Origin: Candidatus Moraniibacteriota bacterium
GTDB lineage: Bacteria; Patescibacteriota; Minisyncoccia; Moranbacterales; DUUL01
DNA length: 64,000 bases
Direction of reading: 5' to 3'
Assembly: GCA_027008775.1 (NCBI GenBank)
Contig: JALVDV010000004.1
Location: 24,544 to 88,543, forward strand
In this document: one piece after another, positions 5,864 to 48,332 of the stretch
Numbering within the stretch: position 1 is the stretch's first letter
Layout: each line of letters begins with the position of its first letter
Notes under the pieces: model-generated
Database searches by the model: none
Told to the model about the DNA's origin: nothing
Seen by the model: the letters and a program-made list of their open reading frames with translations, nothing else
Translations under genes and position numbers: made by a program

Positions 5864-7378
5864 CTATAGTCCGTGGTCTCTTTTGTATTTTTGCCATTGC
5901 TTGCCGGACCAATCTTTGGGTTTTTTAGTAAAAGTTGGCTGGCTATTGTGGTGATAACTGGCGGCGTTGTGATAGAAACTCCAAAAACCATTTTTCTCTA
6001 TGACATTACCATTTTTGTCTTTGATGATTTGCCACCAGACATATTTGCGACCGCCATCGGGTGTTCTTTTTATCAGGGTCGGTCCCTCCGTTTCCACTTG
6101 GCGACCATTGGAATCGCCGAAAATGTCAAAGGTAAGAATCGTTCCGGAGAAATGTGGTTGGATTAGGATATAACCGGGGGTGTTGTTGATGAATTGGAGG
6201 TCCGGCTTGGGAATGTAAACGGTGGCGTCAGTTCCTTGAGGAGAATAGTACTGAACCGGGTAGGCGTGGTTGCGACGCTCGGTTATTTTTAGTCCGCTGT
6301 TAACGGCGGCGCGAAAAAGAGTGGTGGAAACTTGGCAAACTCCACCGCCAAACTCAGGGATGGTTTGGTGGTTTTTGATAACCAACTCCGGTTTGTAGCC
6401 AGTTTTGGCATTTACTTCCCCCAAAATCTTGATAAAAGAAAAAGTTGCTTGTGGAGGCACCAGTACCCCGTTGAATCTTTCGGTGGCGACGTGGATATTG
6501 TGAATTCTGTTTTTGGGAGATCCGCGGAAGTTTGATTGTCCGCTACCTATTTTCTCTTTAATGCCCATTTGACGGTAGTTGTCGGCGGTGATAATCGGTT
6601 TGACTATTTTAGTGGGGAGTTCAACCAGGCCTTTGGTGGATAAGGTGTCCATATATTTTTTAAGGTTTGCCATAGTTTTTTCCAAGTCAATTTCATAACC
6701 CCATTCCTCTTTTTCTTTAACGATGATTTTGTTGTTTTCGTTGGCACCAAGTTTGGCGTTGCGTGGTTCCTTTTTGGTGGAATGTTGCAGCTCTTTGAGG
6801 TATTTTTCCGCTTCTTCCAGATTAATTTGGAAATTTCTTTTTTTATTGATTTGTAGTTTGTTTGATAAGTTATGAGTGAGTTGACAAATGTTCCAAGGTT
6901 GGTCGTTGATTTCATTTTCGGCAAAACAGAGGTTGATGTTTTCAACAGTTGGTGTGTTGGCAAAAGAGGTGCTTGGTTGAAAGACAACAATTGTTTTTTC
7001 TCGAGAGAAAGAGGTTGGCTCAATGGGAACAATACGATTATAAATTTTGACAAAATATTCTTTTTCCCGGCTAAATTTTTCCGCAGAATTTGTTTCCGGT
7101 TCCGTCTCTTCAATGACTTTTTCCTTTTCTTTTTCTTTATTTTTATTGCTTTTGGAAAGAGAAGAATTGTTGTGAACTTGTTGAGAGGGAGAAGAATTTA
7201 GAAGCAGACTGTTGGAAATATTTGCCATATTTTGTTGTTGGCCAGTTTGGTTGGTGGCAATGGTGTTATTTGTTTTGGTGGTAGCCAGACTTGTTAGAGG
7301 ACACAAAAAAAACACTCCAACCAGATTTAGGCTAAAGACAAGAAAATATCTGACGATTAAACAGCGATTATTATTCAT
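5864..7378 (-). CDS. VanW-family protein (signal/TM anchor, long low-complexity linker, C-terminal VanW domain)
   Basis: 'GYKPELVIKNHQTIPEFGGGVCQVSTTLFRAAVNSGLKITERRNHAYPVQYY' is the VanW hallmark. Hydrophobic N-terminus. Confidence 0.7.
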   Translation of the reverse strand: MNNNRCLIVRYFLVFSLNLVGVFFLCPLTSLATTKTNNTIATNQTGQQQNMANISNSLLLNSSPSQQVHNNSSLSKSNKNKEKEKEKVIEETEPETNSAEKFSREKEYFVKIYNRIVPIEPTSFSREKTIVVFQPSTSFANTPTVENINLCFAENEINDQPWNICQLTHNLSNKLQINKKRNFQINLEEAEKYLKELQHSTKKEPRNAKLGANENNKIIVKEKEEWGYEIDLEKTMANLKKYMDTLSTKGLVELPTKIVKPIITADNYRQMGIKEKIGSGQSNFRGSPKNRIHNIHVATERFNGVLVPPQATFSFIKILGEVNAKTGYKPELVIKNHQTIPEFGGGVCQVSTTLFRAAVNSGLKITERRNHAYPVQYYSPQGTDATVYIPKPDLQFINNTPGYILIQPHFSGTILTFDIFGDSNGRQVETEGPTLIKRTPDGGRKYVWWQIIKDKNGNVIEKNGFWSFYHNAASYHHNSQPTFTKKPKDWSGKQWQKYKRDHGL

Positions 7379-7398
7379 TGGCGTTTCGTTGTTGTCAG

Positions 7399-7452: not shown

Positions 7453-8103
7453 TTAAAAGCCCCTTACCTGGATCTTTCTGGTTTTGGTGGTATCGGCCTT
7501 GGGCAGTCTAAGGGTGAGAATCCCGTTTTTCATAGTGGCTTCCGCTTTGTCAGCGACAATTTCCACCGGCAGAATGACACTGCGAGAAAAAGCTCCCCAA
7601 TAACACTCTTGATAGTAATAGTTATCAGCAGAAACTTCTTCATCTTGTTTTCTTTCCCCTTTGATGGTGACCATATCGTTGTTAATGCTGACATCAAGAT
7701 CTTCCGGTTTTACGCCGGCGATAGTTGATTTGATGATAATGTCATCATCTGTTTGGTAAACATCAATGGTAAGTTGTCCCTCGGATTCATCATTGCTGAC
7801 TTCGGTGGCAGTGGTATCAGTTGGGGTGGTGACATTATCTTCCGGTTCATTTGTGGAAGAGGGAAAGGTGTTTTTGTTTTCTGTTTGTTTTTCGTAGGTG
7901 GGCGCGCTATTGGGAACCTCATAAGTATCATCGTTGATTTCAAAAGAGGCCGGCGAAAAAGCTTCACTGTTTGGGTGCTGGGGCGCGGGCTTGTTCTCCC
8001 GATTGATGACAAATTCTTCTTCATTACCGGAATAATTTCCCTCTTCATCAACTCTTTTAATACCGGTTAATTTTTCAAAAAAAGATCTTTTTTGCTGTGC
8101 CAT
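7453..8103 (-). CDS. Hsp20/alpha-crystallin family small heat-shock protein with a ~110-aa disordered N-terminal extension
   Basis: C-terminal ACD-like 'LTIDVYQTDDDIIIKSTIAGVKPEDLDVSINNDMVTIKGERK...NGILTLRLPK'. Confidence 0.8.
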   Translation of the reverse strand: MAQQKRSFFEKLTGIKRVDEEGNYSGNEEEFVINRENKPAPQHPNSEAFSPASFEINDDTYEVPNSAPTYEKQTENKNTFPSSTNEPEDNVTTPTDTTATEVSNDESEGQLTIDVYQTDDDIIIKSTIAGVKPEDLDVSINNDMVTIKGERKQDEEVSADNYYYQECYWGAFSRSVILPVEIVADKAEATMKNGILTLRLPKADTTKTRKIQVRGF

Positions 8104-24222: not shown

Positions 24223-25266
24223 TTATTTCTCTGAAGAAGCTCTTGTTACTTTGGGTTGTTTTTGGGAAGAGAGAAAGTTGTTAACCAGAGAGAGAATTTT
24301 GTTGAAATCGTTTTCCCAGATTATTCTTTGATCTCGCCGGAACCAAGTTCTTTGTCGTTTGGCGTAATTTTTTTCCGCCAAGAAAATTTTTTCCAGAAGA
24401 TCTTGTTTGTTTAGTGGTGGTTTATCGGAATTGTTTTTTGCTGATAGAGATTCCTTTTTCTGAAGATAAAGAGGAATCCAGTAATAGGCTAGGCCGAATT
24501 TTTGAATATCTTCCCAAGTCATTTGGTATTTCTTTTTGATGTTTTTTACTTCTTCAATCATTCCCTCTGTCCAGCGACTTTGTAGTCGTTTTTTGATTTT
24601 TTGGGCCAGTTTTTCTCTGGGCCAGTCAAGGCCTATTTGTAGAAAATCTAGGTGGCGAGGAGGTTTTTTTCTGGGCGCGGGCATTTTTCCCAGGGTGTTG
24701 ATTATTTCCAGAGCTCTGATGAGGCGTTGTCTATTGTGCGAATCAATTTTTCGGGCGTAGCAAGCATCTTTATTTTTTAAGAGGACAAAAAGTTCTTCCG
24801 TTGTTTTTTGGGAGAGTTGTTGACGAAAATTTTGGTTTGGTTTGATGGCCGGAAAGATTGGTTGGTCAATAAGAGCTTGGATCCAGAAACCGGTACCTCC
24901 GCAAACAATGGGGATTTTTTGGCGAGCCGATATTTGTTTAATCAGGCGTAAAGCGTCTTTTTGAAAATTGCTGACATTATAACGATTTTCGTCTTGCAAA
25001 TGTCGGCGAGGGTCTTCAAAGTCAAGTAGGTGGTGAGGAATTTCGCGATAGAAATAAATTTCTTGGTCTTTGTTTTTTTGCCAATACCCGGGAACTTTGC
25101 CGGTGCCCAGATTTAGGTCACAGTAAATTTGTCGGGAATCAGCGGAGATTATTTCTCCGTTTATTTTTTGCGCCAAATCCACGGCCAGGTCCGATTTGCC
25201 GGAAGAAGTCGGTCCGAGGATGACAATAACTTTGGTGTTTTCTGTCTGGCTTTTGTTCTTGTTCAT
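24223..25266 (-). CDS. miaA: tRNA dimethylallyltransferase
   Basis: P-loop 'VIVILGPTSSGKSDLAVDLA', 'ISADSRQIY'. Start set at internal Met (MNKNKSQ); the ORF extends to 25335. Confidence 0.88.
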   Translation of the reverse strand: MNKNKSQTENTKVIVILGPTSSGKSDLAVDLAQKINGEIISADSRQIYCDLNLGTGKVPGYWQKNKDQEIYFYREIPHHLLDFEDPRRHLQDENRYNVSNFQKDALRLIKQISARQKIPIVCGGTGFWIQALIDQPIFPAIKPNQNFRQQLSQKTTEELFVLLKNKDACYARKIDSHNRQRLIRALEIINTLGKMPAPRKKPPRHLDFLQIGLDWPREKLAQKIKKRLQSRWTEGMIEEVKNIKKKYQMTWEDIQKFGLAYYWIPLYLQKKESLSAKNNSDKPPLNKQDLLEKIFLAEKNYAKRQRTWFRRDQRIIWENDFNKILSLVNNFLSSQKQPKVTRASSEK

Positions 25267-25436
25267 AAACAGTTTTATTGGTGACCGAAAATTATTTATT
25301 GTTTTTTGGATGGCTTCTTGTTTGTTGTATAGCATACAACATTTGTTGGAAAAGAAAAGGCTTGGCTTGATGGTTTTGTTCCTATTTTTCCAAAAAATAG
25401 GGGGTTATTTTGATAAATCAGAGAGCCAATGTTTGG

Positions 25437-26737: not shown

Positions 26738-27145
26738 TTAATCAATAAAACCAAAATGTTTTAGGGTGGGGATGATGTTGGGCGCCAGGTTTTCTTTTTC
26801 CAAGTCGGATAGATTGAGCCAAGCCCAATCTTTGATAAAATCGGCCGGTTTGACGGGAGTTAGTCTTTCAGCCAAATAGTGTACCAAGATGACATCAAGT
26901 TTTTCTTGGCCAACATTTTTTTGGGTATAAAGCAGAAATGGTTGGTCGGACAAAATTTTGATCTCAATGCCGAGTTCTTCGCGGGAGCGGATGATGGCTG
27001 TTTCTTGCAAGTTTTTTCCGGGTTTGATTTGTCCGCCACAAAATTTCCAGAAGTCGGAATCACCGTGTTTGTCCAATAAGACCTTGTTGTTTTCCACGAT
27101 TACCGGTCCAGAGGCGATGATGATTTTATTTGTTGTTTCAACCAT
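26738..27145 (-). CDS. NUDIX hydrolase
   Basis: Nudix box 'GGQIKPGKNLQETAIIRSREELGIE'. Confidence 0.8.
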   Translation of the reverse strand: MVETTNKIIIASGPVIVENNKVLLDKHGDSDFWKFCGGQIKPGKNLQETAIIRSREELGIEIKILSDQPFLLYTQKNVGQEKLDVILVHYLAERLTPVKPADFIKDWAWLNLSDLEKENLAPNIIPTLKHFGFID

Positions 27146-27190: not shown

Positions 27191-27790
27191 TTACTTATTT
27201 TGGTCTAACTTTTTGTAGGTCATTTTCTTAAGATTTTTCCACCAGTTAGTGGAAGAGGTTTTTTCCATTTCGGTCAGGAGTTTTTTGGCTGATTCGGTTT
27301 CAACCGCTTTGGAAACATTGTCAATCCAGTTTTGGGTGGAAGAATATCCTTGTTCTTTATATTCCTTGGCTTGAAAAGCCATTTCCAGCCAATCGGCGTC
27401 TCTGGCTACAATGCCTTCTTTGGTGTTTCTGTCTGTAAATTCTTGAAAGTATTTTTGCCATTTTTCTTCAACTGTTGTTCCCAAGTTTTCTATTTGTTCC
27501 CGGAAGGCTTGACGAGAAGGTTCTTTGTTGGAGTAGTAACGGGCGGCAACTTTATGTTGGTCGCCAATTCTGGCTTCGGCGATGTCATGAATAATAAGCA
27601 TAGAAGCGACTTTTTCCGGGTTGACATTTTCCATAACGGCCAGAATGTAGCCAATTTGGGCGGCGCGTAAAGTGTGTTCGGCGATGGAAGCGGAGCCGGC
27701 CGCCGGCAGGCCGGCCAACGACCAACCACTGGTTTTTCTTTTTAATTGACTCATCTCAAAGATGAAGTTGACGATTTTCTTGATGTCCAT
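27191..27790 (-). CDS. HD-domain phosphohydrolase (YfbR-like)
   Basis: 'MLIIHDIAEARIGD' H...HD...D motif. Confidence 0.7.
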   Translation of the reverse strand: MDIKKIVNFIFEMSQLKRKTSGWSLAGLPAAGSASIAEHTLRAAQIGYILAVMENVNPEKVASMLIIHDIAEARIGDQHKVAARYYSNKEPSRQAFREQIENLGTTVEEKWQKYFQEFTDRNTKEGIVARDADWLEMAFQAKEYKEQGYSSTQNWIDNVSKAVETESAKKLLTEMEKTSSTNWWKNLKKMTYKKLDQNK

Positions 27791-27872: not shown

Positions 27873-29504
27873 TTAATGGCGATGTAATTTTTTGACCAAA
27901 TAAGTTTCTCGCAAACGATAGCCGTGACGACGGTAATAATGACGAACGCCAACGCCGGAAATAACGACTATTTTTTGTTGTTGGGCGGGAATGCCCAGTT
28001 TGCCTAATTCTTGCCGACTGATTTTTTCCGCCAGTTGCAGAAGCTTTTTGCCCAGACCGTGGTGTTGGGGCGAATGTTTGCTTTTTTGTTTAAGGGAAGT
28101 TAATTGGCCGTAGGTGTGCAATTCTCTGATAACGGCGGAATTTTTGAGGACTTTTGGCAGGTCAGTGGCGTCGGGGCGATTAATTCTTAGGCGGAGTAAA
28201 GAATAAAGTTTGTTGTTTTGGTCAATAAATTGCAAAAAAATCTCCTTGCCTTGAGAAGCGGGATAGTCAATTCTTTGCAATTTGATTTTCCCTTTGGTTG
28301 GTAATTGATTTTTAATCTCTCGGCAACGGATACATTGGCAGTTGGTTTTGGGCGCGATTATTTGACGTAGATTGGAAATGTTGGGTCCGGCTTCTATGGC
28401 CGGCAGAGGGACATCGCGGACGAGTCTTTGAATGCGAACGTATGGAGGAATGATTTCGTTTTTCACTTTGATTATCAGTTTTTCAAAATCTTTGTTGCTG
28501 AGGGGTTGATACTGGTCTTTTTTCCACCAACGATAAAGAAGAGAGTTTTTGATGACTAAGGTGGGGTAAATTTTTAACATATCCGGTTGGAAATCCGGGT
28601 TGCGAAATATTTCTTTGAACATTTCTAGATCTTTCTGCGGGCTGGAACCGGGTAGGCCGGGCATTAAATGGTAGTTGATTTTAAAACCGGCTTGTTTAAG
28701 CAGGCGAGTGGCTTGGATGGTGACAGCGGTGGAGTGACCACGTTTATTTTTTTTAAGAACATCATCAAAAATTGATTGCACACCCAGTTCCACGCGGGTG
28801 CAACCCAATTCTCTAAAATTTGTTATTTCTTCTTGGTCAATCCAATCAGGTCTGGTTTCCAAAGTAAGGCCGACAATTCTGACAGAGGCGCTCTCGTTTC
28901 TTTTTTGTTCGGCGTTAAGGGAGAAGTTGGTTTTTTTTGACTTCTTTCTTTTTTCCGTTTGAAAAGTTGAAGGAGAAAATTCATTGCAAGCGCGAAAACA
29001 TTCTTTGATAAACCAACGTTGGTATTTTTTGGGAAAGTAAGAAAAAGTTCCGCCCATAACAATCAATTCTATTTTATCTATGGGGTGTCCGTTGATGAGT
29101 AGTGAGTAAAGGCGATTTTGAACTTGTTGGTAGGGATGAAATTTGTTGAGAATGGCGCGCATAACGGCCGGTTCGTTGGAGAGATAACTTTTGGGCATAT
29201 TTTTTTCATTGGGACAAAAAGCGCACTGACCGGGACAGGGGTATGGTTTGGTAAGAACGGCCACAACCGCCACGCCGGATTGGGTACGGACGGCGCGAGC
29301 TTGCATTGCTTTTTCCAACGTTTTCTTCCTTTTTATTTTCTTTTGTGATACCATTTTTTCGTATTCCTCTCTCAAATCAGCGTTGGTCGGTTGGGCTAAT
29401 TGTCGTTCGGAATAGAATTGTTTTTTCAGTTTGAGGAAACGTTTGTTGGAGGTTATTTTTTGCTGGAGAGCAAATTTGATAAATTGTTGATCTAGAGAAG
29501 TCAT
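27873..29504 (-). CDS. elp3: Elp3-family radical-SAM + GNAT acetyltransferase (bacterial elongator Elp3 homolog, putative tRNA U34 cm5 synthase)
   Basis: 'YPCPGQCAFCPN...LIVMGGTFS' radical-SAM/Elp3 core; C-terminal GNAT 'QHHGLGKKLLQLAEKI...VISGVGVRHYYRRHGYRL'. Start set at ATG 29504; the ORF extends to 29816. Confidence 0.82.
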   Translation of the reverse strand: MTSLDQQFIKFALQQKITSNKRFLKLKKQFYSERQLAQPTNADLREEYEKMVSQKKIKRKKTLEKAMQARAVRTQSGVAVVAVLTKPYPCPGQCAFCPNEKNMPKSYLSNEPAVMRAILNKFHPYQQVQNRLYSLLINGHPIDKIELIVMGGTFSYFPKKYQRWFIKECFRACNEFSPSTFQTEKRKKSKKTNFSLNAEQKRNESASVRIVGLTLETRPDWIDQEEITNFRELGCTRVELGVQSIFDDVLKKNKRGHSTAVTIQATRLLKQAGFKINYHLMPGLPGSSPQKDLEMFKEIFRNPDFQPDMLKIYPTLVIKNSLLYRWWKKDQYQPLSNKDFEKLIIKVKNEIIPPYVRIQRLVRDVPLPAIEAGPNISNLRQIIAPKTNCQCIRCREIKNQLPTKGKIKLQRIDYPASQGKEIFLQFIDQNNKLYSLLRLRINRPDATDLPKVLKNSAVIRELHTYGQLTSLKQKSKHSPQHHGLGKKLLQLAEKISRQELGKLGIPAQQQKIVVISGVGVRHYYRRHGYRLRETYLVKKLHRH

Positions 29505-29537
29505 ATTGGTGAAAGTTCTGTTGATGATAATAATTAT

Positions 29538-30242
29538 TTGTTGTTGATGCGTGATTCTGTCAGTGAAAAAATCAGAAGAGAAACGGAAAGTGGTTACAAT
29601 CAGATAGCGAAAAAGTTTTCCGAGACCAGGAAATATTTTTGGTCTGACTTGCTTTGGTTGGCGGACTTGGTGAAGGACGGGGATATAGTTCTGGATTTTG
29701 GTTGCGGTAACGGTCGTTTGCGAAATTTGCTGGTGGACAAGGAAATAGAATATGTGGGAGTTGACATTTCTGACGAATTGCTGAAAGAAGCCCGAAAAAA
29801 GATAGTTTTTACACAAGAGAACTTTAAGAAAATTTCCGCCGGTGAAACCAGCCTAGCATTTAGCGGAGAAAATTTCAATGTTATTTTCAGTATTGCCACT
29901 TTTCATCATTTACCGGGGAAAAAGTATCGTCAGCAAATAGCTGCAGAGCTCTACAGAGTTTTGCGGAAGGAAGGAAGGTTGGTGGTGACTGTTTGGAACT
30001 TGCGACAAAGGAAATATTTAAAATATTTGTGGCGTAATTGGTGGAGGAAATTGAAAGGAAAAAGTCAATTAGATTGGAGTGATTGTTATATTCCTTTCAA
30101 AGATAATGAAGGAAATGTTTTTTGGCGTTATCACCATGCTTTTTCTCAAAGAAGTTTGAAAAAGTTGTTTGAAGAAGTCGGTTTTAGAAAAATTTCCGTT
30201 CGGAAGGTTGGCGGAAACTTGGTTTTGGTTGGTAAAAAATAG
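29538..30242 (+). CDS. class I SAM-dependent methyltransferase (type 11)
   Basis: Motif I 'VLDFGCGNGRL'; divergent from elp3 with a 33-bp gap. Confidence 0.75.
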   Translation: MLLMRDSVSEKIRRETESGYNQIAKKFSETRKYFWSDLLWLADLVKDGDIVLDFGCGNGRLRNLLVDKEIEYVGVDISDELLKEARKKIVFTQENFKKISAGETSLAFSGENFNVIFSIATFHHLPGKKYRQQIAAELYRVLRKEGRLVVTVWNLRQRKYLKYLWRNWWRKLKGKSQLDWSDCYIPFKDNEGNVFWRYHHAFSQRSLKKLFEEVGFRKISVRKVGGNLVLVGKK

Positions 30243-30322
30243 ACAAGGAAGGGAAAATGTTGTTTGACTTTGGGTTGGCTAGTTGTTATTATAGTGCATA
30301 GTTTTTGCCGTTCTTTGGTAAT

Positions 30323-30394
30323 GGTCGCGTGGCCGAGTGGTTTAGGCAAGGGTCTGCAAAACCCTGTACCCCGGTTCAATTCCGGGCGCGACCT
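30323..30394 (+). tRNA. tRNA-Cys (GCA)
   Basis: Cloverleaf: acceptor GGTCGCG/CGCGACC, anticodon arm AGGGT-ctGCAaa-ACCCT, T-arm CCGGTTCAATTCCGG; no encoded CCA. Confidence 0.85.
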
Positions 30395-30424
30395 CATTTA
30401 TTTTTTAGTGAAATTTTTTAACAA

Positions 30425-30511
30425 GCCCGGGTGGTGGAACCGGTAGACACGCAGGACTTAAAATCCTGTGGAGTAAAATCCGTGCGGGTTCAAGTCCCGC
30501 CCCGGGCACCA
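30425..30511 (+). tRNA. tRNA-Leu (TAA) with long variable arm, CCA encoded
   Basis: Acceptor GCCCGGG/CCCGGGC, anticodon arm CAGGA-ctTAAaa-TCCTG, variable arm, T-arm GCGGGTTCAAGTCCCGC, 3' ACCA. Confidence 0.85.
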
Positions 30512-30523
30512 GAATTTGACTTG

Positions 30524-30546
30524 TCGGCCAAAGGCCGATTTTTTTG
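30524..30546 (+). terminator. terminator TCGGCC-aaa-GGCCGA followed by TTTTTTT
   Basis: Read directly, after the tRNA pair. Confidence 0.75.
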
Positions 30547-30733: not shown

Positions 30734-31048
30734 ATGGTGAAGAATAATTGTGTCAGTAAGAAAAAGAAAAAGGATTTGGAGGGAGTCATTGATTTTTTGA
30801 AGGCGCTTTCGGACGGGACGCGTTTGCAAATTCTTTGTTTATTGAGAAAGGAAGAGAAGTGTGTTTGTGAGATTATTGGTTTTTTGAATTTGCCGCAAAA
30901 CCTTGTGTCGCATCATTTAAAAGTCTTGCGTGACGCCGGGTTGGTAGAGGCGCGCAAAAGCGGGGTGCAAGTTTTTTATAAGATAAAAGATGCGGACGTG
31001 CAAAAGCATATCAATCATTTGCAAAAGTTAATTACAAAATCTGAATAA
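30734..31048 (+). CDS. ArsR/SmtB-family metalloregulator
   Basis: 'LKALSDGTRLQILCLLRKEEKCVCEIIGFLNLPQNLVSHHLKVLRDAGLV'. Confidence 0.85.
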   Translation: MVKNNCVSKKKKKDLEGVIDFLKALSDGTRLQILCLLRKEEKCVCEIIGFLNLPQNLVSHHLKVLRDAGLVEARKSGVQVFYKIKDADVQKHINHLQKLITKSE

Positions 31049-31054
31049 AGACGT

Positions 31055-31372
31055 ATGAACAAAATAAAACTCGGAATATTGCTTGGAATCGTCGTCGGGA
31101 TTATTGATGTTATCCCAATGGTATTTGTGGGTTTAACTTGGGATGCAAATTTATCCGCGTTTTTTCATTGGGTTGTTGTCGGTTTTTTGATAGCGACGGT
31201 TGATATAAAAATGAGAGGTGTTTTGAAGGGAATATTTATATCCGTTATTACTCTTGTTCCGTTGGCATTTTTGGTGTGGTGGAAAGATGGATCAAGTATA
31301 ATACCGATGACTGCGTCAACTATTGTTTATGGAGTGATATTGGGATTTTTTATAGACAAATATGGTAAATAA
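31055..31372 (+). CDS. small hypothetical membrane protein (3 TM)
   Basis: ORF only. Confidence 0.45.
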   Translation: MNKIKLGILLGIVVGIIDVIPMVFVGLTWDANLSAFFHWVVVGFLIATVDIKMRGVLKGIFISVITLVPLAFLVWWKDGSSIIPMTASTIVYGVILGFFIDKYGK

Positions 31373-31391
31373 TTTTTTAAATAGCAAAAAT

Positions 31392-31649
31392 ATGCAAAAG
31401 ATAAAAATCCAGGTCTTTGGTTCGGGATGTCCAACTTGTGAGATGCTTTATAATCGTGTTTCCAAGGTGGCAAAGGAGATCAGTCCGGAATTGGAGGTTG
31501 ATTATATTACCAATATCAGAAAGATGGTAGAGCTGGGAGCGATGAGTTCCCCGGTTTTCGCCATTGATAAGCGAATAATTACTGCCGGGCAGTTGCCGGA
31601 GGAAGAAGAAATCAAAAAAGCTATTGAGGCGAGATTAGCTGATAAATAG
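31392..31649 (+). CDS. thioredoxin-fold 'redox-active disulfide protein 2'-like small protein (CPTC)
   Basis: 'KIQVFGSGCPTCEMLYNRV'; typical ars/metal-operon companion. Confidence 0.7.
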   Translation: MQKIKIQVFGSGCPTCEMLYNRVSKVAKEISPELEVDYITNIRKMVELGAMSSPVFAIDKRIITAGQLPEEEEIKKAIEARLADK

Positions 31650-31688
31650 AGAGTATTAATTATTAAGAATTAACATTAACAAAAAGAT

Positions 31689-32480
31689 ATGTTGGAAAAT
31701 ATTTTATTGACCAGTTTAATTGTAGGCGTGGTTACGGCCGGTCTGAAGATTCGCTTTGATCGGTTTTTCACAATTTTGTTGCTCTTGTTTATTTTTGGCC
31801 TAAACATTAGGGAGGCGGTGAATGTTTTTCTGTGGGTTATTATGTTGGGAGCTTTGGTAATTATTTTTCAAAACAGAAAGAAGATTACTCAGCTACCAAA
31901 GGTAATGAAAAAGAAGCTATTTGTTGTAATTCCGATTTTTACTTTAATTGCTTCTTGGGTGGGAACGTTATTGTTTGAAAATGTTAGTGATACAGTTCTG
32001 ATTGTGACTTTGGGTGTTTTGGCGATTCTTTATGGCCTGCGTTTAATATTTGTGCATTTCCAAGAGTATGAACTGGAATTTAAAGAGGGGCATCCGACGA
32101 TTAGCAAAGCGTGTGGATTGTTGGGGCCTTGGATTAGCGGATTTTTCATTGGTTTTATTGGTACCTCACTTAAACCTTTAAAAATTCCTTTTGCCGTTAA
32201 AATTGGCAAGATGAATGTTAAACAAGTTTATCTGGGAAATGTGATTGTGGCATTTTTCGCTTCGGTATTTGCTGTGGTATGGCATCATCTTTTAGCTAAA
32301 CAAGTATTGGCTGACTGGTGGGAAGAAGCGGTTCTAGGTATTATCTTGTGGTTTGGTATTCATTTTATTTATGAAGCGACTGACAAAGTTTTTCCGCCGA
32401 AGTGGCGAAAGGTTTTCCAGGTTTTGGTTGGAATTATTCTTCTTTTGGTTTCTGTAAAGATTTTTATGTTGGTTAAATAA
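31689..32480 (+). CDS. hypothetical polytopic membrane protein (7-8 TM; TauE/SafE-like fold possible)
   Basis: ORF only. Confidence 0.35.
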   Translation: MLENILLTSLIVGVVTAGLKIRFDRFFTILLLLFIFGLNIREAVNVFLWVIMLGALVIIFQNRKKITQLPKVMKKKLFVVIPIFTLIASWVGTLLFENVSDTVLIVTLGVLAILYGLRLIFVHFQEYELEFKEGHPTISKACGLLGPWISGFFIGFIGTSLKPLKIPFAVKIGKMNVKQVYLGNVIVAFFASVFAVVWHHLLAKQVLADWWEEAVLGIILWFGIHFIYEATDKVFPPKWRKVFQVLVGIILLLVSVKIFMLVK

Positions 32481-32493
32481 CCATTAAAACGAT

Positions 32494-33384
32494 ATGTCAC
32501 ATAATCACGCGCATAAAGCTCCAAAGACAATTTCCGGTTTAATGGTCGCTATCGGCATAAATATTGTGATTACGGTTTTTGAGATTGTTTTGGGAATTGT
32601 GGCGAACAGTTTGGCTTTAATATCCGATGCCGCTCACAATTTAACGGATATCGGTTCAATGGTTTTGGGTTATGTAACTGAAAAGATGGTTGCTCGTCCG
32701 GCCAATGATAAAAGGACCTATGGTTATAGAAAGATGGAATTCGTAACCGCCTTTGTCAATGGGCTTATTCTATTATTGGTAACCGGCTATATTTTATACG
32801 AAGGTATCATTAGATTATTTACGGCTCCGGAAGTGATAAGTGGGGTAATGTTCTATGTTGGACTGATTGCCTTATTGGGGAATACAATAGCTACTTGGAT
32901 TTTAACAAAAAGTTCCAAGAATAATACTAATATGCAGGCAGTGTGGTTGCATTCTTTACAAGATGCCCTTTCTTCTCTGGGAGTTGTTATGGGAGCCGTT
33001 ATTATTAAATTTACCGGTTGGAATATTGTTGACCCGGTCATCTCTATTTTAATTGCCGTTTTTTTAATTAAAAGTATTTATCATTTGATTAAAAGAACTG
33101 TGGATGCTTTACTGGATTCTGTGCCGGAAGGAATTGACTACGAAGAGGTGAAGCGAGATTTATTGCAAATCAAGGGAGTGACTAAGCTTAACGATTTGCA
33201 TATTTGGTTGGAGAGTTCTCGTTTGCCGATGTTGTCAGTGCATTTACAAATTGAAGACTTGAATGATTTGGAGCAGATTTTTCAAGAAGCAAAAAAGCTT
33301 TTGTTTGATAAATATCATATTGAGCACACAACGATTCAGATTATTCCGGTGGATTTTGAAATGAAGTCTGAGTATTGCAATTAA
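32494..33384 (+). CDS. cation diffusion facilitator (CDF) family divalent-metal efflux transporter
   Basis: 'NSLALISDAAHNLTDIGSMV' CDF signature, six TM, C-terminal cytoplasmic domain. Confidence 0.85.
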   Translation: MSHNHAHKAPKTISGLMVAIGINIVITVFEIVLGIVANSLALISDAAHNLTDIGSMVLGYVTEKMVARPANDKRTYGYRKMEFVTAFVNGLILLLVTGYILYEGIIRLFTAPEVISGVMFYVGLIALLGNTIATWILTKSSKNNTNMQAVWLHSLQDALSSLGVVMGAVIIKFTGWNIVDPVISILIAVFLIKSIYHLIKRTVDALLDSVPEGIDYEEVKRDLLQIKGVTKLNDLHIWLESSRLPMLSVHLQIEDLNDLEQIFQEAKKLLFDKYHIEHTTIQIIPVDFEMKSEYCN

Positions 33385-33397
33385 CTCATAAATTTTT

Positions 33398-34369
33398 ATG
33401 GACATTTTTTATCCTTTTGAGTGGTTGGCTGATTATATTACTTTTGTTGTTTTTCATTTACAAGCTGATACTCGTTTGGCGGAGGCTTGTCATTTTTTTA
33501 TTTATGACTCTCTGAAAATTTTGGTGTTGATTTTATTGATTACTCATTTAATGAGTTTGTTGCGGTATTATTTACCGGTGGAGAAGTTGCGTGATTTTCT
33601 CAAAAGTCGCAATTTTTATGGACTGGATTATTTTTTGGCGACGATTTTTGGAGCGGTGACACCGTTTTGTTCTTGTTCATCTATTCCGCTTTTTATCGGC
33701 TTCGTGGAGGCGGGAATTCCTTTGGGTGTTACTTTTGCTTTTTTGATTGCCTCACCGCTTATCAACGAGGTAGCGCTGGCTCTTTTTATCGGAATGTTCG
33801 GTTTGAAAATTACCGCTCTTTATGTTGGGGCGGGGATTGCCATTGGAATTGTTGGTGGATTTATTATTGAGCATTTACATCTGGAGAGGTTTGTGGAGGA
33901 CTTTGTTTGGCAAGTAAAAAGTCAGCCTCGGCAGATTGAGAGAAAAAAAGCTTCCTGGAAAGAAGTTGTCAGAAATGTTTCCAGAGAAGCTTTGGGTATT
34001 ACAAAGAAAATTGTTTGGTATGTATTGGCCGGAGTTGGAATTGGCGCTTTAATTCACGGATACGTTCCGCAAGGATTTTTTGCCGCATATTTACAAAAAG
34101 CCGGCTGGTGGGGTGTGCCGTTGGCGGTGATTTTGGCAGTTCCACTTTACTCCAATGCCAGTGGAGTGATTCCGATTATGCAATCTTTGGTGGAAAAGGG
34201 GGTGCCCTTGGGTACGGCCCTGGCTTTGATGATGGCGATTGTCGGTGTTTCTTTGCCCGAGGCCTTAATTCTGAAGAAAGTGATTAAATGGCCATTGCTG
34301 ACTATCTTTTTCGGTATTGTCACCTTAGGGATTATTTTGATTGGCTATTTGTTTAATGTGATTTTGTAA
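33398..34369 (+). CDS. DUF318/ArsP-like permease (organoarsenical efflux permease family)
   Basis: Hallmark 'TPFCSCSSIP' motif in TM region; about 8 TM. Confidence 0.7.
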   Translation: MDIFYPFEWLADYITFVVFHLQADTRLAEACHFFIYDSLKILVLILLITHLMSLLRYYLPVEKLRDFLKSRNFYGLDYFLATIFGAVTPFCSCSSIPLFIGFVEAGIPLGVTFAFLIASPLINEVALALFIGMFGLKITALYVGAGIAIGIVGGFIIEHLHLERFVEDFVWQVKSQPRQIERKKASWKEVVRNVSREALGITKKIVWYVLAGVGIGALIHGYVPQGFFAAYLQKAGWWGVPLAVILAVPLYSNASGVIPIMQSLVEKGVPLGTALALMMAIVGVSLPEALILKKVIKWPLLTIFFGIVTLGIILIGYLFNVIL

Positions 34370-38370: not shown

Positions 38371-38895
38371 TTAATCCAATAGATTATTGTCTTTTAATTT
38401 TTTGATAATTTGTTTTAACAGACGTCGCTTGCCTTTTTGTTTGGTTGAGTTGGCTATCTTTAGAGCTTGTCGGTAGTCGGCCCAATGATAGCCGGCAAAT
38501 TCTCGTGGTTGAGGCAGGTGGCCAGTGGCGCTGGGAATAACAATGAAAAAATATTTCTTGCCAAGCATAAAAATTTTTCGTCCAGAGTCGGTTTGTAGGG
38601 GACGTGTTCCTTGTGTTTGTTGGGGAAATATTATTTTGTCAGCGCCGATTATTTTCATTCTATCAATTTGTAAGTTTTTTGCAAAATCTTTACCCAGTTC
38701 CTCTGTCATTTCTCGGCGAACGGTTTGCCGGATATTTTCTTGATTATCTATACCTCCCTGGGGCAGTTGCCAGAGTTGAAACTTTGGTTGATAAACGAAA
38801 AGCAGTTTACGTTGGTGTAAAATACAAGCCACTATTTGAGGGCGGAGTTGTTTTTTTCTGATGTCGTCAATTTCTTTAAGAGTCGGTTCTTTCAT
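38371..38895 (-). CDS. NUDIX hydrolase (RppH-like)
   Basis: 'GGIDNQENIRQTVRREMTEELG' Nudix box. Confidence 0.75.
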   Translation of the reverse strand: MKEPTLKEIDDIRKKQLRPQIVACILHQRKLLFVYQPKFQLWQLPQGGIDNQENIRQTVRREMTEELGKDFAKNLQIDRMKIIGADKIIFPQQTQGTRPLQTDSGRKIFMLGKKYFFIVIPSATGHLPQPREFAGYHWADYRQALKIANSTKQKGKRRLLKQIIKKLKDNNLLD

Positions 38896-38899
38896 TGTT

Positions 38900-39835
38900 T
38901 TAATTTTTCTTGTTTTCTTCTTTTTCTTTCCTGTGTCCGTGAAATTTCTGATGGACTTTTTTTAGGTTGGCGTCGGTGACGTGGGTATAGATTTGCGTAG
39001 TGTTGATAGAACTGTGGCCGAGGAGAGCTTGAACACTGCGAATGTCAGCGCCATTTTGCAAAAGATTGGTGGCGAAACTGTGACGAAGAACATGAGGTGT
39101 TACTTTTTTAATAATTCCGGCGCGCAAAGCGCATTTCTTGATTATTCTTTGCACGCTGCGGACGGAGAGACGCAGATCGTTTTTTTTGTTTTTTTGTCGG
39201 CCGAGGCGAATGAAGAGAGCCAGGTCGGTGTCGGTGCGTTTGCGCAGGTAACGTTCCAGACTGTCACGGGCGGAGTCGGAAATGAAAACTATTCTGACTT
39301 TGTTACCCTTGCCTTTGACGGAAAACTCTTGTTTTTCCAGGTTGAGGGAGTCGCGATTAAGAGCGATGAGTTCGGAAATTCTTAAGCCGGCGGAAAAAAG
39401 AAGTTTTAAAATAGCTTGATCACGCAATCGTTGCAAAGAATTTCCCGAACAGGCTTTTAATAATTCTTCAATTTCTTTGAGTTCTAAGAAATCAACCTTT
39501 CTTTGCTCGGCTTTTCCCAATTCCACTTTGTCGGCGGAAAGAGTCTTGAAATTGTGACGAGCCAGAAATTTCAGAAACCCTCTGATAGCAATGGCATAGT
39601 AGTTTTGGGTGGTTCGGCTGAGGTTTTTTTCTTTGATCTTTTTTTGGCTGAGATGGACTCTGAACTTGTGGACGATGTCTTCGTTTATCTCGTTGACTTT
39701 TTTAATTTTGCTGAAACGAATAAATTCCTTGAGATAACGACGGTAATTTTCCACCGTTTTGGGAGAACGTTGTCTATCTACCAGAAGATACTCCAGATAG
39801 TTATTTATTTGTTTTTTAATTTCATTGTTTGCCAT
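38900..39835 (-). CDS. xerC: Xer-type tyrosine site-specific recombinase
   Basis: C-terminal catalytic 'LRHSFATNLLQNGADIRSVQALLGHSSINTTQIYTHV' (R..HxxR..Y); N-terminal SAM-like core-binding domain. Confidence 0.9.
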   Translation of the reverse strand: MANNEIKKQINNYLEYLLVDRQRSPKTVENYRRYLKEFIRFSKIKKVNEINEDIVHKFRVHLSQKKIKEKNLSRTTQNYYAIAIRGFLKFLARHNFKTLSADKVELGKAEQRKVDFLELKEIEELLKACSGNSLQRLRDQAILKLLFSAGLRISELIALNRDSLNLEKQEFSVKGKGNKVRIVFISDSARDSLERYLRKRTDTDLALFIRLGRQKNKKNDLRLSVRSVQRIIKKCALRAGIIKKVTPHVLRHSFATNLLQNGADIRSVQALLGHSSINTTQIYTHVTDANLKKVHQKFHGHRKEKEENKKN

Positions 39836-45746: not shown

Positions 45747-46604
45747 TTAGTTGTTCTGTAAATTTTTGATGATCGTTCTTAGTTCGTTTATCTGTTTTTG
45801 CTGGTTGTCTATTTGTTTTTGTTGACTTTCTATCATCTTTTGTTGCTCTTTAATAGCTTCTATAAAAACGCCGGAAAAACCATCGTAGTCAACCATCTTG
45901 TAACCGTTTGGTCCTTGGCTGACTAGGGTGGGAAAGCTTTTTTCAATTTCTTGGGCAATTACACCAATACCTGGCTTGTCATTGTCTTTTAATTTGTATT
46001 CTACTCCTCTGATGTTGATTAGGCGTGTCAAGGCATTTTTGACTGTTTTAATATCTTTTTTTAATCTTTTATCTGACGCTCTTCTGAAACCGGCTGCCCA
46101 AACATTGGTAAACCTACCTTTCCCTCTTCCCACTATTAAACTGGCATCTCTACCTCTGGAACCATCTACCCTAATTCCAACAGATCCGGCAAAACTGGGG
46201 GCATCTGGTGAAGACCCAAAGGCGTATATCCAAGGGCCACGTCGATTATCTACTCTCCTGTAGTCACTTCTGCTATAAACTGTTCCGATATCCATCGTGT
46301 AGTTTGCGTGAACCCCTTCCGCTACCGTTAAAATACCTCTGTCAACTATGCCGTAATTAACTATTAATCCTACCGGGAAACCATGATTTGCATTAAGCAA
46401 CAAAGCTCCGCCCTTTCTTTGTAAACTATTGCTAGTATTAAGGGGTGCCCCCAGGTTACTGCCGGGAGGGTTGGATGGTGGATTGGTCCAAGCTGCTTGA
46501 GCTGAGTTTACTGACACAGTTACCGCTGAGACGGCTACTGCTATTAATGTCATTAATGCCCAGTAGATAGTGTGATTAGTTGTTGATTCCTTTTTGTTTT
46601 TCAT
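45747..46604 (-). CDS. secreted phage-tail-fibre-like protein with a C-terminal peptidase-S74 intramolecular chaperone domain
   Basis: Signal peptide; 'ASDKRLKKDIKTVKNALTRLINIRGVEYKLKDNDKPGIGVIAQEIEKSFPTLV...GYKMVDYDGFSGVFIEAIKEQQKMI' matches the endosialidase/tail-spike chaperone domain (SD[KR]RLK...GVIAQE...). Confidence 0.6.
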   Translation of the reverse strand: MKNKKESTTNHTIYWALMTLIAVAVSAVTVSVNSAQAAWTNPPSNPPGSNLGAPLNTSNSLQRKGGALLLNANHGFPVGLIVNYGIVDRGILTVAEGVHANYTMDIGTVYSRSDYRRVDNRRGPWIYAFGSSPDAPSFAGSVGIRVDGSRGRDASLIVGRGKGRFTNVWAAGFRRASDKRLKKDIKTVKNALTRLINIRGVEYKLKDNDKPGIGVIAQEIEKSFPTLVSQGPNGYKMVDYDGFSGVFIEAIKEQQKMIESQQKQIDNQQKQINELRTIIKNLQNN

Positions 46605-46641
46605 ACTTTTTTGCTTTATTATTTTTTATTATTTTGAAAAA

Positions 46642-47058
46642 TTAATAGTTGTACCGATCACTGGATTTTATTTCCTCTATTATTTTCTTTAATTCTTCGC
46701 CAGACAAATTGTCGCCCTGATTGTAGTTATATTTTTTACTAGACCTTATTTCCTCTATTATTTTACGTACCTCTTCGTCGGACAAATTATTTCCTTGGTT
46801 GTAATTATATTTTTTATCAGATTTTATTTCTTCTATTATTTTATCCAATTCTTTGCCAGATAGTATATCAGAGTTCCCTGTTTTTTGTGTCGTTTTTTTA
46901 AGATGAAAATATTCATTAAAAATATCCAGGCTACCGTATTTGATTGTTAGCGCTAAGGCCGTTAGGCTGGCTATAAGTATTATTCCGGCAACGATTAGTA
47001 ATACTTTTTTCTTTTTTCCGGAGAAGAATTTTTTGTGATTAATATTCTGTTGTTCCAT
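46642..47058 (-). CDS. membrane-anchored small protein with three tandem 23-aa repeats (LS.EE..KIIEEI.S...YNYNQG)
   Basis: Repeats visible at both protein and DNA level (about 69-bp units, 46660-46870). Confidence 0.5.
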   Translation of the reverse strand: MEQQNINHKKFFSGKKKKVLLIVAGIILIASLTALALTIKYGSLDIFNEYFHLKKTTQKTGNSDILSGKELDKIIEEIKSDKKYNYNQGNNLSDEEVRKIIEEIRSSKKYNYNQGDNLSGEELKKIIEEIKSSDRYNY

Positions 47059-47123
47059 ACTATTTTGTTCTATGTTTATTTATACTAGACTTTTAAATAT
47101 TTTACTAGCGACAACCTATTTTT

Positions 47124-48332
47124 TTAAAGCGTTGTTTCTTTCCATGTCTTGGAATCACATTTGTTGATGGTACACGAATTACTGCAAGTTGCAGGGCATT
47201 GTCCATTGTTTCCACCGTTATCACATTCTTCGCTTCCCTCTTTAATACCGTCACCACAAACAGGAACGATGACAACTCTTACATCACTGTTTGCACTGAG
47301 TCCGGAATAGCTTCCAGCAACATTAGTTCTGCCGGCGTTGACGCCTGTAACAAGACCTTTGTTGGTTGTATTATTGACTGATGCAATACTTGTATTGGCA
47401 CTGCTCCAGTTTGTGCTAGTTGTTACATCAGTAGCGCCCGCGTGATTATTGCAATCTATACTTCTACCGACAGCGTAGTAGGCACGGAGTTGTTTGGTGC
47501 CTCTCTTATTTACCAGGAGTTGACTGGGGCAGACGATTAAAACAGGTCTGGGGGAAGTGACTGTCGCACTACTGGTTGCGTTGAGACCAGAGTAGCTTCC
47601 GGTTATATTGGTTCCACCAACATTAACTCCTGTAACAAGACCTTTGTTGGTTGTATTATTGACTGATGCAATACTTGTATTGGCACTGCTCCAGTTTGTG
47701 CTAGTTGTTACATCAGTAGCGCTCGCGTGATTATTGCAATCTATACTTCTACCGACAGCGTAGTAGGCGCGAAGTTGTTGGGTGCGTCCTTTTTCTACAG
47801 AGAACAGATTAGGGCAGACAATCAAGGTGCTGGCTGGGATTCTGGCGTTAAAACTGATCCAGCCTAGCTCATTAGACCAAGCATAACCATTTATTTGACC
47901 AGAGGAGGGATTAACAATTACTCTGTGATTGGCCCCGCTCATTTTAATCCAGCCTTGCCAACCGCCGGAGTTTCCTCTAGCACTTTCTTGAGCTATGCCT
48001 ACAATCCTGGCCCAGCCGATCAAATTATTACCAACTCGTCTAACGCTGCTGTTGGGCCCCTCTGGATAAGGTCCACTGGGGTTGAAATTGATCCACCCAA
48101 TATTGCTACTCCAAGCATAACCTGTAACGTTACCGTCGCCGTTGGGAACATTGATTCCATAATTAACACTTCCTCCCCCGGTGAGATTATTGGTGCTAAT
48201 CCATCCAAGGTTGGTATTGCTTCCTCCCCATAGCCAACCAGTAACATTTTCGTTGTTACCAGCTTTCGCTTGAATGTTTGTGGCCAAAAAAGCGATGGCT
48301 ATGAAGAGTGCAACCAGTATTTTTTTGAGCAT
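47124..48332 (-). CDS. secreted multi-domain protein: GW-containing repeats, two near-identical Big_2 Ig-like domains, C-terminal Myxococcus-type cysteine-rich repeat
   Basis: Signal peptide; repeated 'GWIS/GWIN' motifs; duplicated 'LRAYYAVGRSIDCNNHA.ATDVTTSTNWSSANTSIASV'; C-terminal 'CGDGIKEGSEECDNGGNNGQC'. Confidence 0.55.
   Translation of the reverse strand: MLKKILVALFIAIAFLATNIQAKAGNNENVTGWLWGGSNTNLGWISTNNLTGGGSVNYGINVPNGDGNVTGYAWSSNIGWINFNPSGPYPEGPNSSVRRVGNNLIGWARIVGIAQESARGNSGGWQGWIKMSGANHRVIVNPSSGQINGYAWSNELGWISFNARIPASTLIVCPNLFSVEKGRTQQLRAYYAVGRSIDCNNHASATDVTTSTNWSSANTSIASVNNTTNKGLVTGVNVGGTNITGSYSGLNATSSATVTSPRPVLIVCPSQLLVNKRGTKQLRAYYAVGRSIDCNNHAGATDVTTSTNWSSANTSIASVNNTTNKGLVTGVNAGRTNVAGSYSGLSANSDVRVVIVPVCGDGIKEGSEECDNGGNNGQCPATCSNSCTINKCDSKTWKETTL

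Follow-up and report, generated by a model that had tools for sequence, protein, structure and literature searches.

A divergent Elp3 and Trm9-like methyltransferase gene pair conserved in Patescibacteria, with a predicted role in tRNA wobble-uridine modification

The radical S-adenosylmethionine (SAM) chemistry that forms 5-carboxymethyluridine at the tRNA wobble position (cm5U34) from acetyl-coenzyme A (acetyl-CoA) is established for archaeal and eukaryotic Elp3 (PMC6367351, PMC7663514), and the methyl ester of this nucleoside, 5-methoxycarbonylmethyluridine (mcm5U), is treated as typical of eukaryotes and, lately, of some archaea as well (PMC6144793, PMC2584109). The Trm9-Trm112 complex of Haloferax has been shown to make mcm5U (PMC6144793), Trm112 being needed by Trm9 in eukaryotes (PMC4678810) as well as in Haloferax (PMC6144793), and the genes for Elp3 and Trm9 are clustered in Sulfolobus solfataricus (PMC2584109). 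For bacteria, a 2020 review names Dehalococcoides as the one clade with Elp3, does not mention a Trm9 partner and reports no direct evidence of xcm5U derivatives (modified forms of cm5U) (PMC7663514). Here we describe a gene pair from a Candidatus Moraniibacteriota bacterium, located in a 64,000-nucleotide stretch of contig JALVDV010000004.1 (hereafter the window), in which an Elp3 homologue stands head to head with a small class-I SAM methyltransferase. The methyltransferase retains most of the residues that are essential in yeast Trm9, and the two genes are found side by side in many Patescibacteria, pointing to a bacterial version of the archaeal and eukaryotic pathway.

A head-to-head Elp3 and methyltransferase gene pair

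The two genes and the spacer between them are laid out as follows (evidence in brackets):

27873-29504, minus strand: Elp3 homologue, 543 residues, with radical-SAM and lysine acetyltransferase (KAT)/GNAT domains (TIGR01211, Elp3 structures)
29505-29546, unstranded: divergent spacer of 42 bp between the two ATG codons (sequence and start alignment)
29547-30242, plus strand: Trm9-like class-I SAM methyltransferase, 231 residues (Methyltransf_11, PDB 5cm2_Z, signature residues, Elp3 linkage)

The product of the minus-strand gene is confirmed as a full-length member of the Elp3 family and is a predicted tRNA U34 cm5U synthase. It scores 546.6 bits against the NCBIfam model TIGR01211 (ELP3), whose curated cutoff is 350, over model positions 6-522 of 522. 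Among solved structures it matches Elp3 from Methanocaldococcus infernus (MinElp3, 6ia8) and from Dehalococcoides mccartyi (DmcElp3, 5l7j) with E values of about 1e-115 over residues 58-540 (for DmcElp3, 388 bits and E of about 6e-115), and eukaryotic Elp3 with an E value of about 1e-93. Pfam called only Radical_SAM and Radical_SAM_C on this protein and no GNAT domain; the MinElp3 alignment continues across the KAT domain, to residue 539 of the window protein. Three elements of Elp3 were located on the DNA:

29280-29504, minus strand: basic N-terminal extension, 19 Lys or Arg in 75 residues (residue count)
29214-29237, minus strand: radical-SAM [4Fe-4S] Cys triad CPGQCAFC, with C90, C94 and C97 (alignment to CPHGKCIFC of MinElp3)
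28050-28067, minus strand: acetyl-CoA-binding motif QHHGLG of the KAT domain, residues 480-485 (aligned to QHMGYG of MinElp3)

The Cys triad has the spacing CX3CX2C as against the archaeal CX4CX2C, a one-residue deletion relative to MinElp3. In the linker, CQCIRC at residues 389-394 aligns to CRCIRC of MinElp3 and supplies the Zn-site cysteines C389, C391 and C394, three positions conserved across the Elp3 proteins of bacteria and archaea and absent from eukaryotic Elp3 (PMC6367351). MinElp3 likewise has an extended basic N-terminus, which is important for substrate recognition (PMC6367351), and DmcElp3, with a much shorter N-terminus, binds tRNA weakly and has very weak activity (PMC7663514).

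With this family score, the Cys triad and the KAT motif, the complete Elp3 architecture ascribed to 27873-29504 in an earlier note on this DNA is borne out, as is its description of a small, divergent class-I SAM methyltransferase with the motif I VLDFGCGNGRL (Methyltransf_11, E 4e-18). The gap of 33 bp that it gave between the two genes needs correction. When the methyltransferase was aligned with 22 homologues, its start fell on the ATG at 29547 and not on the TTG at 29538, so the spacer measures 42 bp. A longer, TTG-initiated Elp3 open reading frame was rejected as an artefact of the frame caller, and the 543 residues of Elp3 are counted from its ATG. The 42-bp spacer has no room for two separate promoters, and such a very short shared spacer suggests that Elp3 and the methyltransferase are co-regulated. 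A promoter scan was uninformative, with 8 sites found, none of them in the spacer, against 7.5 expected from shuffles.

Trm9-type residues in the methyltransferase

Profile libraries place the plus-strand product among class-I SAM enzymes and go little further: apart from the Pfam Methyltransf_11 match, Pfam and NCBIfam returned only generic class-I matches (the best being CpaM, UbiE and ArsM-like), all below their curated cutoffs and the best NCBIfam ones far below. Relatives were ranked among proteins of solved structure in the PDB, a comparison set outside which archaeal Trm9 sequences lie. In a single-sequence phmmer search the top match was 5cm2_Z, Yarrowia lipolytica Trm9 (YlTrm9) of the Trm9-Trm112 complex (E 6.5e-11), to which the window protein is about 24-27% identical. 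A search with the family profile gave 62.0 bits for 3sm3, 61.4 for 5cm2_Z and 60.9 for 1ve3, 5cm2_Z being the only full-length profile match (profile positions 26-231), and hhalign paired the window methyltransferase with 5cm2_Z at a probability of 98.8%. An AlphaFold2 model of the protein (mean predicted local distance difference test score, pLDDT, 90.4; predicted template-modelling score, pTM, 0.89) likewise retrieved 5cm2_Z first with Foldseek (E 2.6e-14, target-normalised TM-score 0.82). The comparison with Trm9 and ALKBH8 methyltransferase domains recommended in the earlier note leaned towards Trm9, with YlTrm9 on top by phmmer and Foldseek though nearly level with 3sm3 and 1ve3 in profile score, the Trm9 residues present and no clustering with small-molecule or rRNA methyltransferases. 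CmoM is another class-I enzyme that methyl-esterifies the carboxylate of a wobble uridine, uridine 5-oxyacetic acid (cmo5U); the name of a cmo5U methyltransferase is absent among the 60 listed PDB sequence matches and the 50 listed fold matches. PDB entry 6F5Z was considered as Haloferax Trm9 and ruled out, being Hvo_0019-Trm112 (PMC6144793), and its weak score is therefore uninformative on archaeal Trm9.

The family is large, comprising 683 clusters at E <= 1e-30 in a search of a representative library. In public records its members are mostly called 'UbiE' or 'class I SAM-dependent methyltransferase', and ten distant ones looked up by cluster bore the label 'UbiE' only; many members carry names in the Joint Genome Institute (JGI) data, based on KEGG Orthology (KO), that read 'tRNA (uracil-5-)-methyltransferase TRM9' or 'alkB family protein 8'.

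Taken together, fold and score are suggestive of a Trm9 identity and do not discriminate, whereas the residue signature does; because the PDB profile scores did not single out Trm9, we relied on the residue-level signature. In Saccharomyces cerevisiae Trm9 (ScTrm9), alanine mutants of R29, D72, H116, W145, W168, R241, Y243 and N271 confer zymocin resistance and lower the activity at least ten-fold, about 5% being kept by R29A and about 10% by the Y243 mutant (PMC4678810, Létoquart et al.). R29 and H116 have been proposed to position the cm5U carboxylate, N271 (at uracil O2/N3) and H115 to read the uracil, and W145 to stack on U34 (PMC4678810). We compared these positions through printed pairwise alignments and by aligning 5cm2_Z and 267 members of the family in MAFFT, the numbering offset of 5cm2_Z having been checked on H126/H127, W156, Q160, R192 and N222. 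The correspondences, with the window residue and the counts over the family, are:

ScTrm9 R29 (YlTrm9 R40): R31, R in 265 of 267
ScTrm9 D72: D76, acidic SAM ligand, D in 267 of 267
ScTrm9 H116 (YlTrm9 H127): H124, H in 262 of 267
ScTrm9 W145: W153, W in 265 of 267
ScTrm9 W168: W180, W in 148 and F in 57 of 267
ScTrm9 R241: R197, R in 258 of 267
ScTrm9 Y243: H199, H in 138 and Y in 56 of 267
ScTrm9 N271: N227, N in 255 of 267

Seven of the eight essential residues (R31, D76, H124, W153, W180, R197 and N227) are thus identical in the window methyltransferase, and the signature positions are at least 95% conserved over the 267 members, excepting W180 and position 199. ScTrm9 H115 and Q149 are matched too, by H123 (255 of 267) and Q157, and an invariant Y20 sits 11 residues ahead of R31, a spacing identical to that of Y29 and R40 in YlTrm9. 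The structures 3sm3 and 1ve3, similar in score, are without the HH pair and the Trp in the profile alignments. On the DNA, the motifs that hold these residues are:

29622-29642, plus strand: ETRKYFW, with R31, the proposed carboxylate-positioning Arg (alignment to 5cm2_Z)
29688-29720, plus strand: SAM motif I VLDFGCGNGRL, after which comes D76, at VGVD
29901-29915, plus strand: FHHLP, with H123 and H124, the equivalents of ScTrm9 H115 and H116
29991-30008, plus strand: VWNLRQ, with W153
30123-30143, plus strand: WRYHHAF, with R197 and H199
30210-30233, plus strand: GGNLVLVG, with N227

Conservation and surroundings of the pair

With each GTDB species represented by one genome, relatives of the methyltransferase turned up in 215 genomes, and the best 80 loci (43-55% identity), all of them from Patescibacteria and mostly from Moranbacteria, were examined. 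Searching with the window proteins by tblastn, we found Elp3 divergently upstream of the methyltransferase in 74 of the 80; since in two of the six loci in which it was not found the upstream sequence is shorter than 220 bp, which makes them unassessable, the linkage stands at 74 of 78. The extrapolated starts are at most 281 bp apart in 69 of the 74 loci; the median distance is about 31 bp, and many of the genes stand back to back. As a synteny control, we looked in these loci for all other open reading frames that lie up to 8 kb from the pair on each side in the window: the flanking frames, including MiaA and the ArsR, thioredoxin, TauE, CDF and ArsP genes, recurred in 0 or 1 loci, a NUDIX gene being the sole exception. 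The adjacency of Elp3 and the methyltransferase is not due to chance; among the flanking genes, NUDIX alone recurs in two or more of the 80 loci.

A wider look, in which we searched from a distant representative of the family (P0251) and then looked up eight proteins from other lineages, recovered the pair in all eight, from Buchananbacteria, Berkelbacteria, Nealsonbacteria, Pacebacteria, Minisyncoccales and further Patescibacteria. Each has a gene for a Radical_SAM plus Radical_SAM_C protein of 520-562 residues divergently upstream of the methyltransferase, immediately adjacent in seven; in the Buchananbacteria locus (L082), Elp3 lies about 2 kb upstream of the methyltransferase with two genes inserted between. 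By tblastn, Elp3 is 44-50% identical and the methyltransferase 30-39% identical across the eight, and the flanks are unrelated. The pairing, whose conservation the earlier note had left to be checked, therefore holds both in 74 of the 78 assessable loci and in all eight look-ups. Its remark that Elp3 is rare in bacteria does not describe this lineage, where 74 species-level genomes, and several further Patescibacteria groups, have Elp3 beside the methyltransferase.

Several features of the related loci were recorded alongside. In several Patescibacteria lineages (L083, L084, L089, L090 and L091) the coding sequences of Elp3 and the methyltransferase, as called, share 2 bp where their 5' ends meet, and each promoter must therefore lie inside the coding sequence of the partner. 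Upstream of Elp3, the Nealsonbacteria-, Pacebacteria- and Minisyncoccales-like loci L085/L086, L087 and L089/L090 repeatedly have genes for DUF763, a NIF3-like protein and sometimes RtcB (one copy containing an intein), and an LDcluster4 gene recurs 3' of the methyltransferase in L084, L087, L089 and L090. One Elp3 relative, in L092, has a SpoU-family (TrmH/TrmL-like) 2'-O-methyltransferase gene 1.7 kb to its 3' side (7476-7943, minus strand), with a NUDIX gene beyond. Many records of metagenome-assembled genomes labelled 'uncultured Bdellovibrionales bacterium' (L001, L002, L004, L008, L012, L022, L023 and others) carry the locus at 43-55% identity; as they are interleaved with Moranbacteria records, these labels look wrong.

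The immediate neighbours of the pair in the window are:

24223-25335, minus strand: MiaA, the transferase for N6-isopentenyladenosine at tRNA position 37 (i6A37), 2.5 kb from Elp3
26738-27145, minus strand: small MutT-like NUDIX hydrolase, 3' of Elp3 (Pfam NUDIX)
27191-27790, minus strand: HD_3 / YfbR-like HD-domain phosphohydrolase, between Elp3 and NUDIX
30323-30511, plus strand: tRNA-Cys(GCA) and tRNA-Leu(UAA), directly 3' of the methyltransferase
30425-30511, plus strand: tRNA-Leu(UAA) itself, a U34 tRNA and candidate substrate, 183 bp 3' of the methyltransferase (ARAGORN, Rfam)

The NUDIX gene is the only one of these that travels with the pair. It is co-oriented downstream of Elp3 in 41 of the 62 loci with room for it, immediately adjacent in 31, the co-conservation extending over related loci among L004-L080 and to the Buchananbacteria locus. 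In the PDB its product resembles only MutT and Ap4A hydrolases of a generic kind; as Elp3 turns over acetyl-CoA, a CoA-related role is conceivable. The HD-domain protein, whose closest matches in the PDB are AF1432 and human HDDC2, is encoded at the same position in one of the 80 related loci (L062), and in the Buchananbacteria locus an HD-domain gene (6783-7391) lies 3' of the methyltransferase. MiaA occurs in none of the 80, and its proximity to Elp3 looks incidental. The tRNA genes were rejected as a conserved feature, related loci having other tRNAs at that place (often Ala-Ile, or a Leu-Val-Ile-Phe-Met-Gly array) or none; in the window, the two lie between a promoter-like site at 30264-30292 and a terminator-like hairpin at 30523-30539.

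Beyond the tRNAs, co-oriented genes at 30734-34369 (plus strand) encode an ArsR-family regulator, a small membrane protein, thioredoxin_3, a TauE/SafE exporter, a CDF transporter and an ArsP-type permease, and look like a metal/redox-responsive export operon that is not related to the pair. A second NUDIX gene lies beside a XerC/XerD-type tyrosine recombinase gene at 38371-39835 (minus strand), and genes with Peptidase_S74 (endosialidase chaperone) and Big_2 domains at 45747-48332 may be of phage-tail-fibre origin. The window as a whole has a G+C content of about 40% and a gene content typical of Patescibacteria (the candidate phyla radiation, CPR), including aminoacyl-tRNA synthetases, IF-2, MiaA, a VanW-domain gene and numerous small hypotheticals. 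GC skew is positive in almost all 2-kb bins of 1-64000, the sole dip being at 46-48 kb, and with the cumulative skew rising near-monotonically the whole window probably lies within one replichore. Neither MnmE nor MnmG is among the annotated open reading frames of the 64-kb window, which is too small to show their absence from the genome.

Predicted pathway, rival explanations and known systems

We consider it likely that Elp3 makes cm5U34 and that the methyltransferase esterifies it to mcm5U34. A compact two-enzyme wobble-uridine pathway had been put forward in the earlier note from adjacency, and the signature residues and the conserved pairing now lend it computational support. The first step is predicted because of the family membership of Elp3 and the second because of the active-site signature and the gene linkage of the methyltransferase; the substrate tRNAs and activity without Trm112 are predictions as well. 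Elp3 would bind U34-containing tRNAs via its basic N-terminus, and its [4Fe-4S] cluster would cleave SAM to give a 5'-deoxyadenosyl radical, which would remove an acetyl hydrogen from the acetyl-CoA bound in the KAT domain; the resulting acetyl-CoA radical would then add to C5 of U34, yielding cm5U34. The methyltransferase, with SAM bound, would position the cm5U carboxylate through R31 and H124 and recognise the uracil through N227, H123 and W153, and methyl-esterification would convert cm5U34 to mcm5U34.

Several observations weigh against this assignment, which is computational for every member of the family. In profile score Trm9 is nearly tied with the uncharacterised archaeal methyltransferases 3sm3 and 1ve3, and the Foldseek lead of 5cm2_Z over other class-I methyltransferases is small. 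The eighth essential residue, Y243 of ScTrm9, is His199 in the window protein. Four methyltransferase loci are without an adjacent Elp3 gene, and seen from the Elp3 side the pairing is not universal: a metagenome scan seeded with Elp3 yielded nine loci, of which one (L094) has an adjacent divergent methyltransferase, and the Elp3 loci L092 and L093 (53% identity) and the more distant L095-L098 are without it. Finally, a Trm112-like open reading frame was found neither in the window nor in 1.16 Mb of related loci, a weak negative given that loci and not whole genomes were covered, by a crude scan for a motif of E. coli YcaR and by partial Pfam annotation. The methyltransferase may possibly be active independently of Trm112.

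The His at position 199, which the window protein shares with about half of the family, and the Trm112 result would also suit a methyltransferase that acts on Elp3-modified tRNA at another derivative or atom, giving an xcm5U product specific to Patescibacteria, or one that requires an extra partner. The cm5U intermediate of Haloferax is quickly turned into other products (PMC6144793), and the co-conserved NUDIX gene is without an assigned role. We nevertheless think this unlikely, since the protein keeps the Arg/His dyad proposed for the carboxylate as well as the Asn, His and Trp for the uracil, as expected for the same substrate and chemistry. It is still less probable that the substrate has nothing to do with tRNA (a small molecule, a protein or rRNA) and that the adjacency reflects a shared bidirectional promoter region: generic, sub-cutoff Pfam and NCBIfam matches, a total similarity to Trm9 no higher than that to uncharacterised methyltransferases, and public names that mostly read 'UbiE' or 'class I SAM-dependent methyltransferase' would all be compatible with such an enzyme, yet the two genes stay paired in several Patescibacteria lineages at identities as low as 30%, amid flanking genes that all differ, and seven of the eight functional residues of Trm9 are conserved. 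A role in ubiquinone or menaquinone synthesis is unlikely for a further reason, as Patescibacteria, to our knowledge, generally lack quinone biosynthesis.

That Elp3 itself might have a role outside tRNA, such as protein acetylation, which the methyltransferase would then serve, seems to us very improbable. A histone/lysine acetyltransferase function was once proposed for Elp3, and the name survives in PDB entries, but acetyl-CoA hydrolysis by bacterial, archaeal and eukaryotic Elp3 is triggered by tRNA alone and not by peptides or other nucleic acids (PMC6367351), and the basic tRNA-binding N-terminus and all cofactor motifs are present in the window protein. Starting from the preferred conversion of U34 to mcm5U34 by the two enzymes, we also entertain, tentatively and with considerable doubt, a broader proposal in which this two-gene module would produce mcm5U34 throughout Patescibacteria, without Trm112 or the other Elongator subunits and in place of MnmE/MnmG, the NUDIX hydrolase being perhaps a third component.

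Literature searches on Elp3 in the candidate phyla radiation or Patescibacteria turned up no study of this pair. Automated pipelines are already correct in part, with TIGR01211 for Elp3 and the KO name TRM9 for some of the methyltransferases; what is new is the recognition of a conserved, Patescibacteria-wide bacterial module of a known archaeal and eukaryotic pathway, and not the kind of system. If the reading of the conserved pair is right, it would extend the pathway to a large bacterial radiation and provide a naturally minimal system for Elongator chemistry, made of two small soluble proteins and possibly free of Trm112; it would also bear on the decoding of split codon boxes by symbionts with reduced genomes and on gene exchange between Patescibacteria and archaea.

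Among described systems that target the C5 atom of the wobble U34, the canonical MnmE/MnmG route leading on to MnmC shares with the pair its presumed purpose, to restrict or tune wobble decoding. Its chemistry and protein families are entirely different, involving a GTPase, FAD and folate as opposed to radical SAM with acetyl-CoA. Yeast Trm9-Trm112 and human ALKBH8-TRMT112, which convert cm5U34 to mcm5U34, resemble the window methyltransferase in their class-I fold, YlTrm9 being its best solved match by both sequence and fold. The functional residues R29, D72, H115/H116, W145, W168, R241 and N271 are common to eukaryotic Trm9 and the window protein, and both are coupled to Elp3. In contrast to its eukaryotic counterparts, the window methyltransferase has His for Y243, has no Trm112 detected and is encoded head to head with Elp3, and with 231 residues it is without the insertions of the yeast enzyme and the AlkB and RRM domains of ALKBH8. 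The bacterial DmcElp3 is a stand-alone Elp3, as is the window protein, but its N-terminus is short, whereas the 75-residue basic N-terminus described here is archaeal-like. The archaeal Elp3 and Trm9 proteins (HVO_2888/HVO_1032 of Haloferax volcanii; Sulfolobus solfataricus) offer a further parallel, with an Elp3 that stands alone without Elp1/2/4/5/6, as here, and the window Elp3 is of the archaeal/bacterial type in its Zn-binding cysteines and basic N-terminus. This pair differs from the archaeal one in that Haloferax Trm9 is Trm112-dependent and in that the host here is a bacterium, a member of the Patescibacteria.

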